From: a virus
Taxonomy: Duplodnaviria; Heunggongvirae; Uroviricota; Caudoviricetes
Virus record (IMG/VR): IMGVR_UViG_3300000292_000047
Reading direction: 5' to 3' (one strand)
DNA: 48,335 bases
The notes beneath the pieces are model-generated. The model saw only the letters and a program-made list of their open reading frames with translations. It was not told the DNA's origin and made no database searches. Positions 10,210 to 14,930 of the stretch are shown in pieces; position 1 is the first letter of the stretch, and every line of letters starts with the position of its first letter. The position numbers were made by a program, and so were the translations under genes.

Positions 10210-10866
10210 ATGAAAAGCAACGACGAGAACATCAAGAAAGAAATAGGTCTGCGCATTCAGACTCTACGGAAACAATCCGGCATGACTGCCGGAGATCTCC
10301 AGCAAGTCACTGGAATAGGCTTAAGCACCTTGCAGAACTATGAGGCCGGATTAAGACAACCATCTATACCTGCCATCAAGAAAATCGCGCACGCCCTGAA
10401 AGCATCAGCGCCTTATATCGCGTGCTTAACAGATAACCCGTTCCCACCCCAGAATACTAACGCTCCTGTTATTCCTGGGCTTGTAGCTATAAAAAATGAC
10501 ATAGCATCGCACGCCGGAGAAAAGCCAGTGCTGGCGATAGAACAGGAGATTCTACGAAGCAAGAACATCAACCCATCGTCTCTGTCAGTTCTCCAGAGCA
10601 ACGATGAGTTAATGTCACCAACAATATCCCCTGGCTCCCAAGTCCTGATTAATACAGACGATACAGAGATTCATGAGGGGATCTATGCCCTTGAAGACAG
10701 AAATGGCCTGGTTGTTTTGAGGCACTGTAGAGTCATACCGGGTGACAATGCTGTTATGCTGTCAACCGAAAGGGATGCTGAAATGAACACTAAGCATCTG
10801 AATAACGAGGAATTTAAGCGTTATAAAGTTCTTGGCCGCGTAGTTAGTGTTGTCAACTGGTTATGA
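10210..10866 (+). CDS. CI-type phage repressor (XRE HTH + S24 LexA-like peptidase domain)
   Basis: 218 aa; N-terminal HTH (LQQVTGIGLSTLQNYEAG), C-terminal S24-like region; divergent from early operon. Confidence 0.75.
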   Translation: MKSNDENIKKEIGLRIQTLRKQSGMTAGDLQQVTGIGLSTLQNYEAGLRQPSIPAIKKIAHALKASAPYIACLTDNPFPPQNTNAPVIPGLVAIKNDIASHAGEKPVLAIEQEILRSKNINPSSLSVLQSNDELMSPTISPGSQVLINTDDTEIHEGIYALEDRNGLVVLRHCRVIPGDNAVMLSTERDAEMNTKHLNNEEFKRYKVLGRVVSVVNWL

Positions 10867-11460: not shown

Positions 11461-11483
11461 CCAAACACATGGAGTCTCGACAA

Positions 11484-12137
11484 ATGACTATCTCTGTAGG
11501 TATTTTCAACGGAAAAGGCGGCGTAACCAAATCAACAATTGCCCGTGCTTTAGCAGTTGCTTATGCAAAGGCCGGCTGGAATGTATGCCTGATCGATATG
11601 GATGTGCTTAACGGAACGGTAACGCGTTGGGTACAACGCAGAATGGCCAACAATATCGAACCTGCAATCGCGGCGCAGCCGTGCGGCACGCCATCACAAG
11701 TCCAGAAAATCATCGAATCAGAAGTATACGACCTGGTTATCGTCGATGGCGGTGCCTACGCATCTGAATCAGTACCGAAGCTCTCTGAATTTCTGGATAT
11801 GGTTATTTTGCCAACCAGATTCTCTACCGATGACCTAGAAACCACCGTTAACACAGCTCACGGCATCGTTAAAAAGGGTGTGCCAATCAAGAAAATTTGC
11901 ATGGTGTTCTCAGGCGCGGCTGAAAACGAAGCCGACTACATTGAAGCCCAAGAGTACCTAGCTAATACGCCATACTTTGTTGTCGATAAGTACATTCCCC
12001 ACAAGCCAGCTCTGAGCAAAGCTCAGGATAAGGGCTTAAGCCTCATTGAATGCTCATACGTTGCGCCACGCAAAAAGGCAGACGACGTTATTCAGGGGAT
12101 TATCAACCAGCTTGAGGCTCTGACTACTGCCGCGTAA
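11484..12137 (+). CDS. parA: ParA/ParF-type partition ATPase (alternative ATG at 11469)
   Basis: Deviant Walker A GKGGVTKST; MinD/ParA fold; GGAG SD before ATG 11484. Confidence 0.8.
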   Translation: MTISVGIFNGKGGVTKSTIARALAVAYAKAGWNVCLIDMDVLNGTVTRWVQRRMANNIEPAIAAQPCGTPSQVQKIIESEVYDLVIVDGGAYASESVPKLSEFLDMVILPTRFSTDDLETTVNTAHGIVKKGVPIKKICMVFSGAAENEADYIEAQEYLANTPYFVVDKYIPHKPALSKAQDKGLSLIECSYVAPRKKADDVIQGIINQLEALTTAA

Positions 12138-12650: not shown

Positions 12651-12674
12651 TAAAAAAGGCCCCCGAAGGGGCCT
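12651..12674. terminator. Hairpin terminator, usable on minus strand (bidirectional candidate)
   Basis: aggcccc-cgaa-ggggcct perfect stem; A-run on plus gives U-run on minus. Confidence 0.6.
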
Positions 12675-12679
12675 AATCG

Positions 12680-12802
12680 CTACTTGCTGCTAATGTTTAT
12701 CGTCACATTCAGAGCGTTATCAGTAATCTTCCAACCCTCCCCATGTGGCGTAAACAAAGCCCCAGTAACAACGATAAAAATACACATACAGTATTTTTTC
12801 AT
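12680..12802 (-). CDS. Small hydrophobic peptide (40 aa), candidate type I toxin-like or exported peptide
   Basis: MKKYCMCIFIVVTGALFTPHGEGWKITDNALNVTINISSK; ATG inside track ORF 12680-12862; terminator immediately downstream. Confidence 0.3.
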   Translation of the reverse strand: MKKYCMCIFIVVTGALFTPHGEGWKITDNALNVTINISSK

Positions 12803-13200
12803 TGTATGGCCCTTACAGGCCGTTTCACGGCATCCCCACCGACGAAAACAACGCGAGAGCAAGCACGGCTGCTTGTGCTTGCATGTACGGCAACGGAGAA
12901 TCCTCCCCTAAAGTCGGTGCCCGGGTGCGAATCGGCGGGAAGGTCCACAGGTATTTTACGATTATTTTAAGATTAGTAATAGGAAAGAAATTAAACGAAA
13001 AAACTCGTTTATTTTCACAAAATCAGTAACCTACCCACAATCTGTGAGTTTGCAGGCACAACAAGAATCACAATTTTTTGAAGCATAATAGTGGACTATT
13101 ATTACCTTTTGGGTAAAATTAACTTGCTGCTTGTGCTTGCGTGGTTGTTTATACAACGACGTTATGCTGAAAGGACCGCGAATCCGATCAGCACGAAAGA

Positions 13201-13227
13201 ACCGTCCTCAATAGGGCGGTTTTTTTG
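13201..13227 (+). terminator. Intrinsic terminator (plus)
   Basis: accgtcc-tcaata-gggcggt then T7. Confidence 0.6.
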
Positions 13228-13309
13228 TTTCTGCCTACCAATAAACCCACGCTATGTGGTTGTCTCTGTTAAAATCCCGCCGTATTGACATGAATGCGCC
13301 ATTGGTGGA

Positions 13310-13392
13310 CACTTTCCGAGCCGTAGCAAAATCTACGGTCGGGATTGGAACCCCGTAGACACAATGGCGCATACCGCGTTAGCGGTTTTTTT
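13310..13392 (+). ncRNA. Candidate small structured RNA ending at intrinsic terminator, upstream of antirepressor operon
   Basis: TTGACA at 13285-13290; hairpins ccgtag/ctacgg; terminator accgc-gtta-gcggt + T7 (13373-13392); no ORF. Confidence 0.3.
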
Positions 13393-13558
13393 ATGCGTAA
13401 AGCACTGCTACACCCAAATTATGGTGGGGCGTGCGGGGGAGTCGTAAGACTCGCCGGTTCGTCATTGTGTCCGGTAGTTCCAACCCTGCACGTCTCACCA
13501 CCCAATGATTGGAACCTGACGGTGGTGAGTATCCTTAACCTTTAAGGGAATCATCACA

Positions 13559-13750
13559 ATGACAAACCTACCCCATGACTATTACGTCAACCTCGTAAAG
13601 ATCCTTCTCAAGAAAGCCTCATACGCCGATAAATTCCGCCTGGCTGAAATCATCGAGCGCGAAGCTATGCGCATCGCCAGCAACGATAACGCTGTTTCTG
13701 ACGCAAAAATCTCCCTCGTAACCAAAGTTGTTATGGGAGGTGCAAAATGA
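13559..13750 (+). CDS. Small protein translationally coupled to antirepressor
   Basis: 63 aa; stop overlaps ant start (ATGA). Confidence 0.45.
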   Translation: MTNLPHDYYVNLVKILLKKASYADKFRLAEIIEREAMRIASNDNAVSDAKISLVTKVVMGGAK

Positions 13751-14898
13751 AAACGCTTCCGATCGTTAACACCCTACAGCCTATCCTGCATAATCAGATT
13801 CCAGTAATCACAACTGAGCTACTCGCCCGCCTTTATGGAACAGAAGCAATCCGTATACAGCAAAATCACCATGAAAATAAAACTCGGTTCATTGAGGGGA
13901 AGCACTTCTTTAAAGCTGTTGGTGATGAACTCAAAAATTTGCGACTAGTTTTAAACGAGTCACAAAATGAGGTGCAAATTTCCCCCAAAACTCGCTCTCT
14001 CATCCTCTGGACAGAACGCGGGGCTGCACGTCACGCCAAAATGCTTGAAACTAACCAAGCGTGGGATGTGTTCGAACGGCTGGAAGACTGCTATTTCAAC
14101 CAGAACGCGCAAACGGCCGCGACCGTTACCGTCTCGCCAAACAATCCTCGTGAGGTTGTCGATACGCTCAACGCCAAACCGATGTTTTACATTAAGGTGT
14201 GCAACAACGAGCCACTCACAACCTCAGCCGATGTTGCCCAGGCATTCAGCACCACAAACAATTCCATCGTTATGGCCATCGATGCGTTACGCATTCCTCG
14301 TACAGCTGCGGCACGTCATTTCTTTAAAGAGCAACGACCGCTGGAAGGAAGCGACCGCGAAATAACAATCTATCGCATGACAAAAGACGGATTTACCTTG
14401 CTCATGGAAAGTATCGACGGTCCAGGCGTGAAAGATATCAAGCTGGCCTACATTGAAGCCTTTAACGCTATCAGCAGCGTGTTAAAAACACAGTACGAGC
14501 GTGATCTGGCTAAACGACTGTACCAGGAAAAAACGATTATCCGCGCGGCAACAGAGCATAATCGGCTATTAACAGAACCGAAATACAGGAAGGAACTAAT
14601 CAAGGAGTTTGACAAGGCAACAGGGAAAACCAAAGCGGCGCTAAATCTGCCAGCAATGACTCAGGAAAATGTGATATCAGCCTTACTTCTTGATCTGCTC
14701 AGAAACGCCAGAGCACTTATCAGCTTTGACGAAAACCTGAATCCTCAGCTCAAGCTACTACCACCGACAGGCAAAGTAGTCGACCAGGCTGATCACAACA
14801 GCATACTCAGCGTACTGGATGCAAACCTGCCAGCCAGGACACTACAGGATCTGATAAAAACATGTGCTGATAAGCTGGCACAGAAGAGCAGACCATAA
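13747..14898 (+). CDS. Antirepressor-type regulatory protein (ORF6N-like N-terminus + Rha domain)
   Basis: 383 aa; ITIYRMTKDGFTLLMESIDGPGVKDIKLAYIEAFN matches Rha pattern; GGAGG SD. Confidence 0.7.
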   Translation: MKTLPIVNTLQPILHNQIPVITTELLARLYGTEAIRIQQNHHENKTRFIEGKHFFKAVGDELKNLRLVLNESQNEVQISPKTRSLILWTERGAARHAKMLETNQAWDVFERLEDCYFNQNAQTAATVTVSPNNPREVVDTLNAKPMFYIKVCNNEPLTTSADVAQAFSTTNNSIVMAIDALRIPRTAAARHFFKEQRPLEGSDREITIYRMTKDGFTLLMESIDGPGVKDIKLAYIEAFNAISSVLKTQYERDLAKRLYQEKTIIRAATEHNRLLTEPKYRKELIKEFDKATGKTKAALNLPAMTQENVISALLLDLLRNARALISFDENLNPQLKLLPPTGKVVDQADHNSILSVLDANLPARTLQDLIKTCADKLAQKSRP

Positions 14899-14902
14899 CT
14901 AC

Positions 14903-14930
14903 AAGGGGCTACGGCCCCTTACTCTTTTCT
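14903..14930 (+). terminator. Intrinsic terminator after antirepressor gene
   Basis: aaggggc-tacg-gcccctt followed by actcttttctc. Confidence 0.65.

Follow-up and report, generated by a model that had tools for sequence, protein, structure and literature searches.

Organization of the locus

The window, by which we mean the whole 48,335-nucleotide stretch of DNA that was analyzed, carries between positions 13285 and 14920 a series of elements in the order a1-b1, C4, a2-b2, leader ORF, ATGA overlap and ant, all of them on the plus strand (Table 1). Two curated RNA families, IsrK and C4, have matches here that lie 24 nt apart on the same strand and both score over their gathering scores; the listed features are non-random and are accounted for by these two families. 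An earlier note, made from the letters of this DNA without database searches, had described an ORF-free, structured RNA region upstream of a coupled small-ORF/antirepressor operon. All the sequence features that it listed were found within a base or two of their given positions, although some of the roles assigned to them had to be corrected. The description as ORF-free is apt in that the mechanical ORFs of the region (34 and 66 codons) have no support, but such ORFs do exist.

Table 1. Coordinates of the elements of the module in the window.
Feature	Position	Strand	Basis or remark
Sigma-70-type promoter	13285-13313	+	Sequence reading and alignment to relatives
IsrK sRNA with intrinsic terminator	13320-13392	+	Rfam isrK (RF01394)
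a1 site, UUGGAAC	13345-13351	+	Complementary to C4 a′; predicted -14.0 kcal/mol
b1 site, GACACAAUGGCG	13358-13369	+	Complementary to C4 b′ loop
C4 antisense RNA	13417-13505	+	Rfam RF01695
b′ recognition loop (hairpin 2 loop, core UCAUUGUGU)	13456-13472	+	Complementarity and co-variation
a′ recognition segment, GUUCCAA	13477-13483	+	Single-stranded between hairpin 2 and outer stem
a2-presenting hairpin	13494-13529	+	9-bp stem; a2 UUGGAAC (13509-13515) in loop
b2 target site, CACAAUGACAAACC	13554-13569	+	Complementary to b′; covers orf63 AUG (13559-13561)
orf63, 63-codon leader ORF	13559-13750	+	ORF; position of P1 icd
Antirepressor gene ant, 383 aa	13747-14898	+	ORF6N N-terminal domain and Rha domain
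Terminator-like hairpin, operon end	14903-14920	+	Terminator scan

From the partition genes to the antirepressor, a distance of about 950 bp, the RefSeq record of plasmid pECO-b75 is devoid of annotated features, and the corresponding gap is likewise empty in the tables (PLSDB and GenBank) for two close relatives. In fact, the gap holds four RNA genes: ryfA/timP, a TimR-like sRNA, IsrK and C4. The TimR-like RNA (13122-13227) has as its partner ryfA, which is encoded on the opposite strand. A terminator at 13201-13227 had been counted as part of the antirepressor module; the hairpin exists, is followed by T7 and folds as a strong terminal hairpin that the terminator scan missed, but it ends the separate structured RNA antisense to ryfA and belongs to this neighboring TimR/ryfA-type toxin-antitoxin unit. 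Rfam matches to RNAI and to the Phe and Thr leaders at 13105-13231 were far under their gathering scores and reflect the terminator hairpin only.

Promoter and IsrK element

The -35 box TTGACA (13285-13290), which the earlier note had picked out, is separated by a 17-nt spacer from a weak -10 element, GACACT (13308-13313), and we infer from the homologues an RNA 5′ end near 13320. The promoter aligns position for position with a TTGAC-17 nt-TATAxT arrangement before IsrK/a1b1 in most of 17 relatives, including the annotated P1 promoter P1c4 and the promoter region of isrK in Salmonella Gifsy-1, while three Klebsiella-type loci have TTTACA and CATAGT in place of the usual boxes. The poor -10 hexamer is a weak point; the promoter scan was silent on the site because GACACT matches the consensus at just three of six positions.

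A perfect 11-nt inverted repeat is formed by ATGCGCCATTG (13294-13304) and CAATGGCGCAT (13362-13372), whose arms are the sole exact copies in the window. It had been read as a hairpin of the small RNA. The repeat is real, but the 5′ arm sits between the -35 and -10 boxes, where the RNA would not yet have begun, and the hairpin was therefore rejected. Nine of the 11 positions are kept in YpM_39 and YpM_41, and other families are without the repeat.

The segment 13320-13392 scored 67.7 bits on the isrK model, compared to a gathering score of 50. The c4-a1b1 model (RF03163) also matched, over 13307-13359, with 38.8 bits (E=3.8e-8), which is under its gathering score of 46.7. Both models overlap in all of the 18 loci that were compared (the window and 17 others, including P1, P7, D6, Gifsy-1 and VT2-Sakai). 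The layout of the family in the Rfam alignment, with two 5′ hairpins of which the second has a1 in its loop, then b1 and a Rho-independent terminator, was found in the window. Hairpin 1 is formed by 13320-13326 and 13333-13339, and 6 of its 7 pairs change on both sides among the 18 loci. Hairpin 2 (13340-13343/13352-13355) presents a1 and is followed by b1, and the intrinsic terminator that the earlier note had seen was recovered by the scan as a hairpin (13373-13386) with a run of seven T (U7 in the RNA). The repeated hairpin units are likewise in place, with CCGTAG at 13321 and 13353 and CTACGG at 13333. IsrK has a fold z-score of -2.3, and in isolation its MFE fold favors another pairing, that of CUACGG with the second CCGUAG. 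A helix of GCGCAU (13367-13372) with AUGCGU (13393-13398) around the terminator had seemed conserved by eye; it was rejected, with 71.7% of cells paired versus 68.3% in shuffled alignments.

The small RNA proposed in the note corresponds to IsrK (13320-13392) with a1/b1; it carries copies of the target sites and not their complement. In Gifsy-1, IsrK activates translation of the antirepressor (PMC4825925). The Gifsy-1 RNA is an Hfq-associated activator that acts in trans, and some of its transcripts pass the terminator; when it was supplied in trans, anrP translation rose more than 100-fold and Gifsy-1 was induced (PMC4825925).

C4 antisense RNA

The C4 family was matched over its full length (1-87) with 77.8 bits, compared to a gathering score of 45 (E=1.2e-13), and blastn aligned this segment with the annotated c4 of P1 and P7. 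By alignment to the annotated 77-nt c4 of P1, the mature RNA would extend from about 13423 to 13502. The MFE and centroid folds (-46.1 kcal/mol, z=-6.2) both show a 17-bp outer stem (13422-13438/13484-13500) that encloses hairpin 1 (13439-13443/13448-13452) and hairpin 2 (13453-13457/13471-13475), with a′ and b′ unpaired. Across the 18 loci, the outer stem and hairpin 2 had all of their cells paired (100%) and hairpin 1 had 97.7%, and 13 pairs of these three helices changed on both sides. The c4 of P1 and P7 represses ant and determines heteroimmunity (PMC12197685). The earlier note had treated the leader as a mere target of the small RNA, and this has to be given up: the homologue of the antisense repressor lies within that leader.

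All duplex energies were computed on restricted segments, because full-length RNAduplex gave uninformative structures with large interior loops. The a1/a′ helix changes on both sides at 6 of its 7 pairs among the 18 loci, and the b1/b′ pairing, which also co-varies, covers 12 nt (92% complementary) with a predicted energy of -18.9 kcal/mol. For the combined duplex of IsrK with C4 a′b′, the predicted energy is -35.4 kcal/mol.

Downstream sites, leader ORF and antirepressor

The 9-bp stem at 13494-13529 is present as it had been described, with CTCACCACC (13494-13502) as its 5′ arm and GGTGGTGAG (13521-13529) as its 3′ arm. Among the 18 loci, this stem has 92% paired cells and 4 pairs with changes on both sides. 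The C4 outer stem uses the 5′ arm as its own 3′ strand, and the two structures are thus mutually exclusive. The a2 site in the loop is identical to a1 in 18 of 18 loci, and its 7-nt pairing with a′ has a predicted energy of -8.8 kcal/mol. Both a1 and a2 lie inside the 10-mer GATTGGAACC, which, in line with the loop repeat noted earlier, has just two copies in the window, at 13343 and 13507. The b2 site is 93% complementary to b′ (13456-13469) over 14 nt, with a predicted energy of -18.1 kcal/mol, and co-varies with it. In the leader fold, the Shine-Dalgarno AAGGG (13544-13548) is in a local hairpin just 5′ of b2.

The ATGA-coupled 63-codon ORF of the note was found: orf63 overlaps the 383-codon ORF by the ATGA at 13747-13750. 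It matches phrog_7886, whose function is unassigned, over its full length (E=2e-47), and 62-63 of its 63 residues are identical in four relatives. There was no Pfam or NCBIfam match, and BLASTP gave no alignment to P1 Icd, and orf63 was therefore rejected as an Icd homologue.

The antirepressor assignment of the downstream gene was borne out by Pfam matches to ORF6N (3.3e-20) and Phage_pRha (3.8e-12) and by many antirepressor PHROGs. Over the part of the N-terminus that could be aligned, Ant shares 52% identity with Gifsy-1 AnrP and 69% with VT2-Sakai Ant. Homology to P1 Ant1 was rejected, with no significant alignment (best E=7). As judged from its sequence, Ant belongs with the ORF6N antirepressors of Gifsy-1 and Stx phages. 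The ant gene is disrupted in some close relatives, and the module may therefore not be essential to them.

Co-variation of the pairing sites

The same IsrK-C4 tandem was found in all of the 17 other loci, and c4, a1, b1, a2, b2, icd and ant are annotated in P1, P7 and D6. The three sets of a/b sites co-vary across the 18 loci. On average, each C4 matched its own four sites over 28.8 nt and the sites of other loci over 14.5 nt. Ten distinct a-site sequences occur, and each of them is exactly matched in a1, a2 and a′. In the helices, 95.7% of cells were paired, versus 82.3% in shuffled and approximately 40% in slid alignments, and 26 pairs changed on both sides; the observed values were attained in 0 of 500 shuffles. 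The window, YpM_39 and YpM_41 carry three site combinations around a nearly identical orf63, namely UUGGAAC/CACAAUG in the window, UUGGAAC/CACCAUG in YpM_39 and UUGGCGU/CAUCAUG in YpM_41.

These data bear on whether the hairpins could be unrelated terminators or attenuators of a long 5′ UTR in which short motifs are repeated by chance. Two terminator-like hairpins are present, and the leader 13503-13575 alone does not exceed shuffled sequence in stability (z=-0.45), as such a reading would allow. It is refuted, however, by the extensive compensatory changes within and between the RNAs together with covariance-model scores 18-33 bits over the curated gathering scores. The 10-mer repeat also argues against it, with two copies found where 0.08 are expected and 0 of 100 shuffles containing at least two. 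We give chance essentially no weight as an explanation.

Comparison with known immunity regions

Taken as a whole, positions 13285-14920 very probably constitute a P1-type immunity-I (immI) module of a myovirus-type phage-plasmid, in which C4 antisense RNA and IsrK control the leader ORF and ant. Family membership, anatomy, complementarity and co-variation are demonstrated here. The central claim of the earlier note, that of an antisense-controlled small-ORF/antirepressor operon like immI of P1, is upheld by the C4 and IsrK matches over their gathering scores, by the direct blastn tie to the annotated c4 of P1 and P7, and by an element order that matches the P1 annotation with pairing sites that co-vary in 18 loci. 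The module is one that is already known, an ordinary though unannotated copy of P1-type immI, and its host is a 48-kb Escherichia phage-plasmid. The phage-plasmid family is present in 84 of 5,426 complete E. coli genomes, and about 60 plasmids of PLSDB have the module.

The window resembles immI of P1, P7 and D6 in the order and strand of every RNA element, in the position of the sigma-70 promoter, and in the three-helix fold of C4 with a′ and b′ exposed. In all of them, sets of target sites lie both upstream and downstream of C4, and C4 is followed immediately by the a2 hairpin, which uses the 3′ strand of C4 as its 5′ arm. A short leader ORF and the antirepressor gene, which in P1 are icd and ant1, share an ATGA overlap. 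The sites vary among relatives and C4 changes to match them; P1/P7 heteroimmunity rests on this. In the window, by contrast, orf63 is not homologous to Icd nor Ant to Ant1/Ant2, and b2 covers the start codon and not the Shine-Dalgarno. The a1b1 element of the window has a clean GC-rich terminator and scores as IsrK, whereas those of P1, P7 and D6 reach 35-46 bits on the isrK model. The host is also different, since P1 is a punavirus with C1 and the window is from a 48-kb myovirus phage-plasmid with a CI-like repressor.

Gifsy-1 has a C4 homologue approximately 25 nt after IsrK (locus L005: isrK 1899-1975, C4 2001-2084), an ATGA-coupled upstream ORF and the same promoter layout, and it shares with VT2-Sakai and the window a homologous ORF6N N-terminal domain (52-69% identity). 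However, the coupled ORF of Gifsy-1 and the Stx phages (orf45; 57 codons in VT2-Sakai) starts at a conserved AUG inside C4. An ORF of this type was rejected for the window, where the frame from the conserved AUG at 13421 stops after 8 codons and a separate 63-codon ORF lies 3′ of C4. In Gifsy-1 and the Stx phages, b2 is on the Shine-Dalgarno just before ant, and in the window it is on the orf63 AUG. Unlike Gifsy-1, the window has no antQ or isrJ nearby, and its Ant has an extra Rha domain and a C-terminal extension (383 aa versus 187 aa).

The immunity region of satellite phage P4 (seqA - CI RNA - seqC) is similar in that a small RNA processed from the leader pairs with complementary sites on either side of it. 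In the view of the Gifsy-1 authors, IsrK has a structural homologue in seqA; according to the same paper, P4 CI makes transcription of the replication genes terminate prematurely and does not block translation of an antirepressor operon (PMC4825925). The Rfam searches of the window reported no P4-type match. The searchable literature connects the Gifsy-1 work with P4 CI and not with P1 c4, and Rfam places isrK outside the C4 clan. Our comparison indicates that P1 c4/a1b1 and Gifsy-1 IsrK/STnc1160, which are treated in two separate literatures, are the same module.

In P22, sar is encoded on the strand opposite to its target, which it overlaps, and is a cis-antisense RNA. By analogy, a minus-strand RNA across the leader ORF or the ant start would block translation in the window. 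The likeness is a general one, in that ant of P22 immI is likewise an antirepressor gene whose translation is blocked at initiation by a small antisense RNA (PMC12197685). The regulator in the window is instead in tandem on the same strand as its target, with short loop-loop complementarity. A scan of 13280-13760 found no minus-strand promoter-like or terminator-like site, and the Rfam matches, co-varying helices and other structured RNA signals are all on the plus strand. The sar-ant analogy of the earlier note is accordingly dropped, and we consider a sar-type arrangement extremely improbable.

Proposed mechanism

What follows on the start of transcription, on termination with read-through, on RNA processing and on repression and coupling of translation is inferred from the homologues, as are IsrK's role as an activator and the Ant target. 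A single promoter, with its -35 box at 13285, would initiate transcription at about 13320. Some transcripts would end at the terminator 13373-13392, which would give an IsrK of approximately 73 nt with a1 and b1, while the read-through RNA would span C4, the a2/b2 leader, orf63 and ant. An RNA of approximately 80 nt, C4, may be excised from the read-through transcript, a step in which RNase P is involved, at the 5′ end, in P1. In Gifsy-1, STnc1160 (approximately 80 nt) is processed from a read-through transcript (PMC4825925), and IsrK and STnc1160 are transcribed in lysogens (bioRxiv 10.1101/787010).

The exposed a′ and b′ of C4 would then pair with a2 and b2. The b′/b2 duplex lies over the orf63 AUG, so that orf63 translation would be blocked, and ant would in turn stay untranslated because it is coupled to orf63 via ATGA. 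The CI-like repressor (10210-10866) would remain active and the plasmid prophage would remain lysogenic. Since orf63 and Ant are not homologous to Icd and Ant1, it is only by analogy that coupling and Rho-dependent polarity are extended to the window.

Both sites recur in IsrK, whose predicted binding to C4 is stronger than that of the mRNA (-35.4 kcal/mol for the duplex with C4 a′b′, versus -18.1 for b2 and -8.8 for a2, on the restricted segments). An excess of IsrK may compete for C4, or for the C4 segment within the read-through RNA, which would free the orf63 start, switch on Ant and lead to induction. The sequences of the a and b sites would determine immunity specificity, as in P1 versus P7. 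We tentatively propose, at somewhat less than even confidence, that IsrK is the a1/b1 element of P1-type immI, a separately terminated decoy that sponges C4, and that the rapidly diversifying a/b loops define heteroimmunity groups. In the P1 annotation, the role of a1/b1 is labeled only 'putative'.

In Gifsy-1, constitutive co-expression of the orf45/STnc1160 region strengthened and did not weaken IsrK toxicity (PMC4825925), which does not agree with simple repression by C4 and its titration by IsrK. The authors attributed activation to remodeling of the read-through mRNA and not to titration of a free antisense RNA (PMC4825925). If the window were purely of this type, the C4-like segment would work only within the read-through mRNA, with no free C4 acting on a2/b2; a′b′ would pair in cis with the IsrK portion as the silent 'structure A', and free IsrK would remodel the mRNA in trans. 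This is backed by mutational and structural experiments at the homologous Gifsy-1 locus (PMC4825925), and in the MFE fold of the read-through RNA (13320-13580) the IsrK middle (approximately 13341-13372) does pair in cis with C4 at approximately 13459-13486. However, a2 and b2 co-vary with a′ and b′ in 18 of 18 loci, which the model does not require, the window is without an orf45 equivalent and has its coupled ORF downstream of C4, as in P1, and a processed RNA of C4 size (approximately 80 nt) exists even in Gifsy-1. Remodeling as the sole mechanism is therefore unlikely for the window, although it can coexist with the C4 antisense mechanism.

Biological meaning

The value of the present finding is mainly one of annotation, and specialists in phage immunity will find nothing surprising in it. 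The IsrK-C4 pair marks the lysis-lysogeny override of this phage-plasmid family and predicts heteroimmune relatives. If the decoy proposal is true, immI would be a three-RNA switch, consisting of decoy, antisense and target, that arises from one transcription unit, and the co-circulating 48-kb phage-plasmids would fall into heteroimmunity groups that are set by their a/b loops.

Identification of an IsrK-C4 module upstream of the antirepressor gene

An Rfam scan of the whole window at gathering thresholds gave four matches, to isrK, C4 antisense RNA, ryfA and a tRNA (anticodon loop CUCAUAA). At a relaxed threshold, c4-a1b1 (RF03163, 'a1, b1 targets of C4 antisense RNA') also matched 13307-13359, overlapping the IsrK match, with 38.8 bits and E=3.8e-8, which is below its gathering score. 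Sensitive blastn of 13285-13565 matched 257 phage records; P1 and P7 (at their annotated c4 genes), phage D6, Gifsy-1 and a large number of Stx phages were among them. All 17 relatives that were fetched had an IsrK/c4-a1b1 match followed about 25 nt further on the same strand by C4. The isrK and c4-a1b1 models covered overlapping sequence in the window and in up to 16 of the 17 relatives, P1, P7, D6 and Gifsy-1 among them, with isrK alone listed for four; the two models apparently describe a single element, with the terminator in one case and without it in the other. The Rfam C4 clan does not have isrK as a member, and the Gifsy-1 paper likens IsrK/STnc1160 to P4 seqA/CI, not to P1 c4 (PMC4825925). 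The module is real and well supported, and elements of its kind are already known.

Coordinates of features in the window
Feature	Position	Strand	Remarks
tRNA	1084-1012	-	Rfam, 65.8 bits
CI-like repressor gene	10210-10866		HTH_3 and weak Peptidase_S24 match
ParA gene	11469-12137		
ryfA	12948-12652	-	Rfam, 141.8 bits
TimP-like ORF	12802-12680	-	40 codons; inside ryfA match
Promoter -35	13285-13290	+	TTGACA, then 17-nt spacer
Promoter -10	13308-13313	+	GACACT, weak
IsrK (RF01394)	13320-13392	+	Rfam, 67.7 bits; hairpin 1, hairpin 2 (a1 in loop), b1, terminator
a1 site	13345-13351	+	UUGGAAC, in loop of IsrK hairpin 2
b1 site	13358-13369	+	GACACAAUGGCG, between hairpin 2 and terminator
C4 (RF01695)	13417-13505	+	Rfam, 77.8 bits; 17-bp outer stem enclosing two inner hairpins
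b' loop of C4	13456-13472	+	single-stranded in predicted fold
a' segment of C4	13477-13483	+	GUUCCAA, single-stranded in predicted fold
a2 site	13509-13515	+	UUGGAAC, in loop of 9-bp hairpin 13494-13502/13521-13529
b2 site	13554-13569	+	over orf63 AUG at 13559

Anatomy of the module

A TTGAC-17 nt-TATAxT promoter lies in the same register just upstream of the first hairpin in most relatives, and from this register the RNA start should be near 13320. IsrK ends in a hairpin (13373-13386) and seven T, which is terminator-like, as an earlier note had proposed. The predicted C4 fold is strong (-46.1 kcal/mol, z=-6.2), and alignment with P1 c4 as annotated would put the mature RNA at about 13423-13502. 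The 5' arm of the a2 hairpin doubles as the 3' strand of the C4 outer stem, and these two structures are therefore mutually exclusive; the a2 hairpin is conserved (92% of cells paired, 4 pairs changed on both sides). The 10-mer GATTGGAACC was found only at 13343 and 13507 in 48 kb, compared to a chance expectation of 0.08, and b2 showed 93% complementarity over 14 nt to 13456-13469 in b'. The leader ORF, orf63 (63 codons, 13559-13750), and the antirepressor gene, ant (383 codons, 13747-14898), share an ATGA overlap, and the ant product has ORF6N and Rha domains and matched many antirepressor PHROGs, in agreement with the coupled layout described earlier.

Every motif listed in the earlier note was present (TTGACA at 13285, CCGTAG at 13321 and 13353, CTACGG at 13333, the 9-bp stem, an 11-nt inverted repeat and both copies of the 10-mer), and the proposed likeness to the P1 immunity I (immI) layout was correct in outline. 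The roles assigned to the RNAs were not upheld: the supposed antisense sRNA carries target-like sites, and C4, the antisense repressor homologue, sits inside the 'leader' that was taken as the target. The comparison with P22 sar fails because no minus-strand signals were found.

The 11-nt inverted repeat is perfect (ATGCGCCATTG at 13294-13304, CAATGGCGCAT at 13362-13372) and neither arm has another exact copy in the window. Its 5' arm falls in the promoter spacer, which rules out the sRNA hairpin that had been suggested, and its 3' arm overlaps b1; an operator is possible. Just 9 of the 11 positions are kept in YpM_39/41, and the repeat is absent from other families.

The adjoining unit and the host element

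A type I toxin-antitoxin pair (12652-13227) adjoins the module. A structured plus-strand RNA at about 13122-13227 (fold z=-5.5) has the terminator at 13201-13227 as its 3' end. Its segment 13126-13143 repeats plus-strand 12868-12885 (18 nt, 94% identity), so that it is an antisense RNA to ryfA, as expected of a TimR-like antitoxin. Gene order and complementarity agree with timP/timR, a divergently transcribed type I toxin-antitoxin pair (PMC7667032). The terminator that the earlier note placed here folds as a strong terminal hairpin, but belongs to this other unit.

The 2-kb stretch around the module shared 91-98% identity with some 60 Escherichia plasmids that are non-mobilizable and almost all 47-50 kb long, and 94-96% identity with three Yersinia myophages (vB_YpM_39, 41 and 44), each a 49-kb circle. 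Window 20000-44000 matched phage structural modules (terminase, portal, sheath, tape measure and tail fibre) at 98-99.8% identity. Together with the ParA and CI-like repressor genes and the plasmid relatives, these modules identify the window as a plasmid prophage, or phage-plasmid. Of 5,426 complete E. coli genomes, 84 have the 476-nt core of the module, for the most part on plasmids of this kind. In some close relatives ant is split or partly pseudogenised (pECO-b75, L019 5463-6632; an E. fergusonii plasmid, L001 4182-4904) into an ORF6N fragment marked incomplete and a separate 'Rha family' CDS, whereas the window has an intact ORF. None of the four RNAs (ryfA/timP, TimR-like, IsrK, C4) is annotated in the pECO-b75 RefSeq record.

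Comparison with known systems

The P1 record annotates promoters P2c4 and P1c4, a1, b1, c4 (77 nt), a2, b2, icd and ant1, with icd overlapped by ant1 over 4 nt. The window has identical elements in identical order; however, orf63 is unrelated to Icd and Ant to Ant1. A lambdoid-type antirepressor is instead joined to the P1-like arrangement. Over the aligned N-terminal (ORF6N) region, Ant shares 52% identity with Gifsy-1 AnrP and 69% with VT2-Sakai Ant. In Gifsy-1 (L005 2001-2154) and VT2-Sakai (L006 2064-2237), the coupled upstream ORF (orf45 and 57 codons, respectively; experimentally studied or annotated) begins at a conserved AUG at the 5' end of C4, as in Stx phages, and runs through the whole of C4. 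In contrast, the frame from this AUG ends after 8 codons in the window, which has a separate leader ORF downstream of C4. Likewise, b2 lies on the start codon of that ORF and not, as in these lambdoid relatives, on the Shine-Dalgarno sequence directly before the antirepressor start. These differences are minor variations in a known system.

Proposed mechanism

In the P1 model, processing of the operon transcript releases C4, whose pairing with a2/b2 stops translation of the leader ORF and hence, via coupling, that of ant (P1/P7 record annotations; review PMC12197685). In Gifsy-1, the whole operon is under the isrK promoter, with some transcripts passing the IsrK terminator, and the region that Rfam names C4 yields a processed ~80-nt RNA, STnc1160; IsrK in trans raised anrP translation >100-fold via the coupled upstream ORF and induced the prophage (PMC4825925). 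From these homologues we infer how the module in the window is expressed and processed, that it involves repression and coupling, and in which direction IsrK acts. By this analogy, C4 would hold orf63-ant silent, and IsrK, once bound to the recognition segments of C4, may act as a competitor or activator. The CI-like repressor, encoded 3 kb upstream of ant and the likely target of Ant, would in turn be inactivated by it. The predicted C4-IsrK duplex (-35.4 kcal/mol) is stronger than C4-b2 (-18.1) and C4-a2 (-8.8), and IsrK-C4 pairing in cis is predicted for the read-through RNA. However, co-expression of the STnc1160 region strengthened IsrK toxicity in Gifsy-1 (PMC4825925), which does not fit a simple titration model.

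Co-variation and specificity

The anatomy and complementarity of the module are accompanied by co-variation. The recognition sites vary widely, with ten different a-site sequences among 18 loci (the window and its 17 relatives), and yet a1, a2 and the complement of a' are one 7-mer in 18/18; the b sites follow a like pattern. Summed exact matches of C4 to its own four sites averaged 28.8 nt, compared to 14.5 nt when the sites came from other loci. Helices were counted on the alignment of the 18 loci (IsrK and C4 helices and the a1-a' intermolecular helix): 95.7% of cells were paired, compared to 82.3% when shuffled and ~40% with partners slid, and 26 pairs had changed on both sides. The observed values on all five measures were reached by 0/500 shuffles.

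Three specificity combinations occur within the window's own phage-plasmid family (window, YpM_39 and YpM_41). The a/b sites among near-identical phage-plasmids (window 13340-13570 versus L002 and L016) are UUGGAAC/CACAAUG, UUGGAAC/CACCAUG and UUGGCGU/CAUCAUG, while the orf63 protein is identical across window, YpM_39 and YpM_41, with only two synonymous base differences (~99% identity). Site variation beside a constant orf63 is what a determinant of immunity specificity should show, as in P1 versus P7. The RNA recognition loops are a local diversification hot spot, and they probably define immunity groups.
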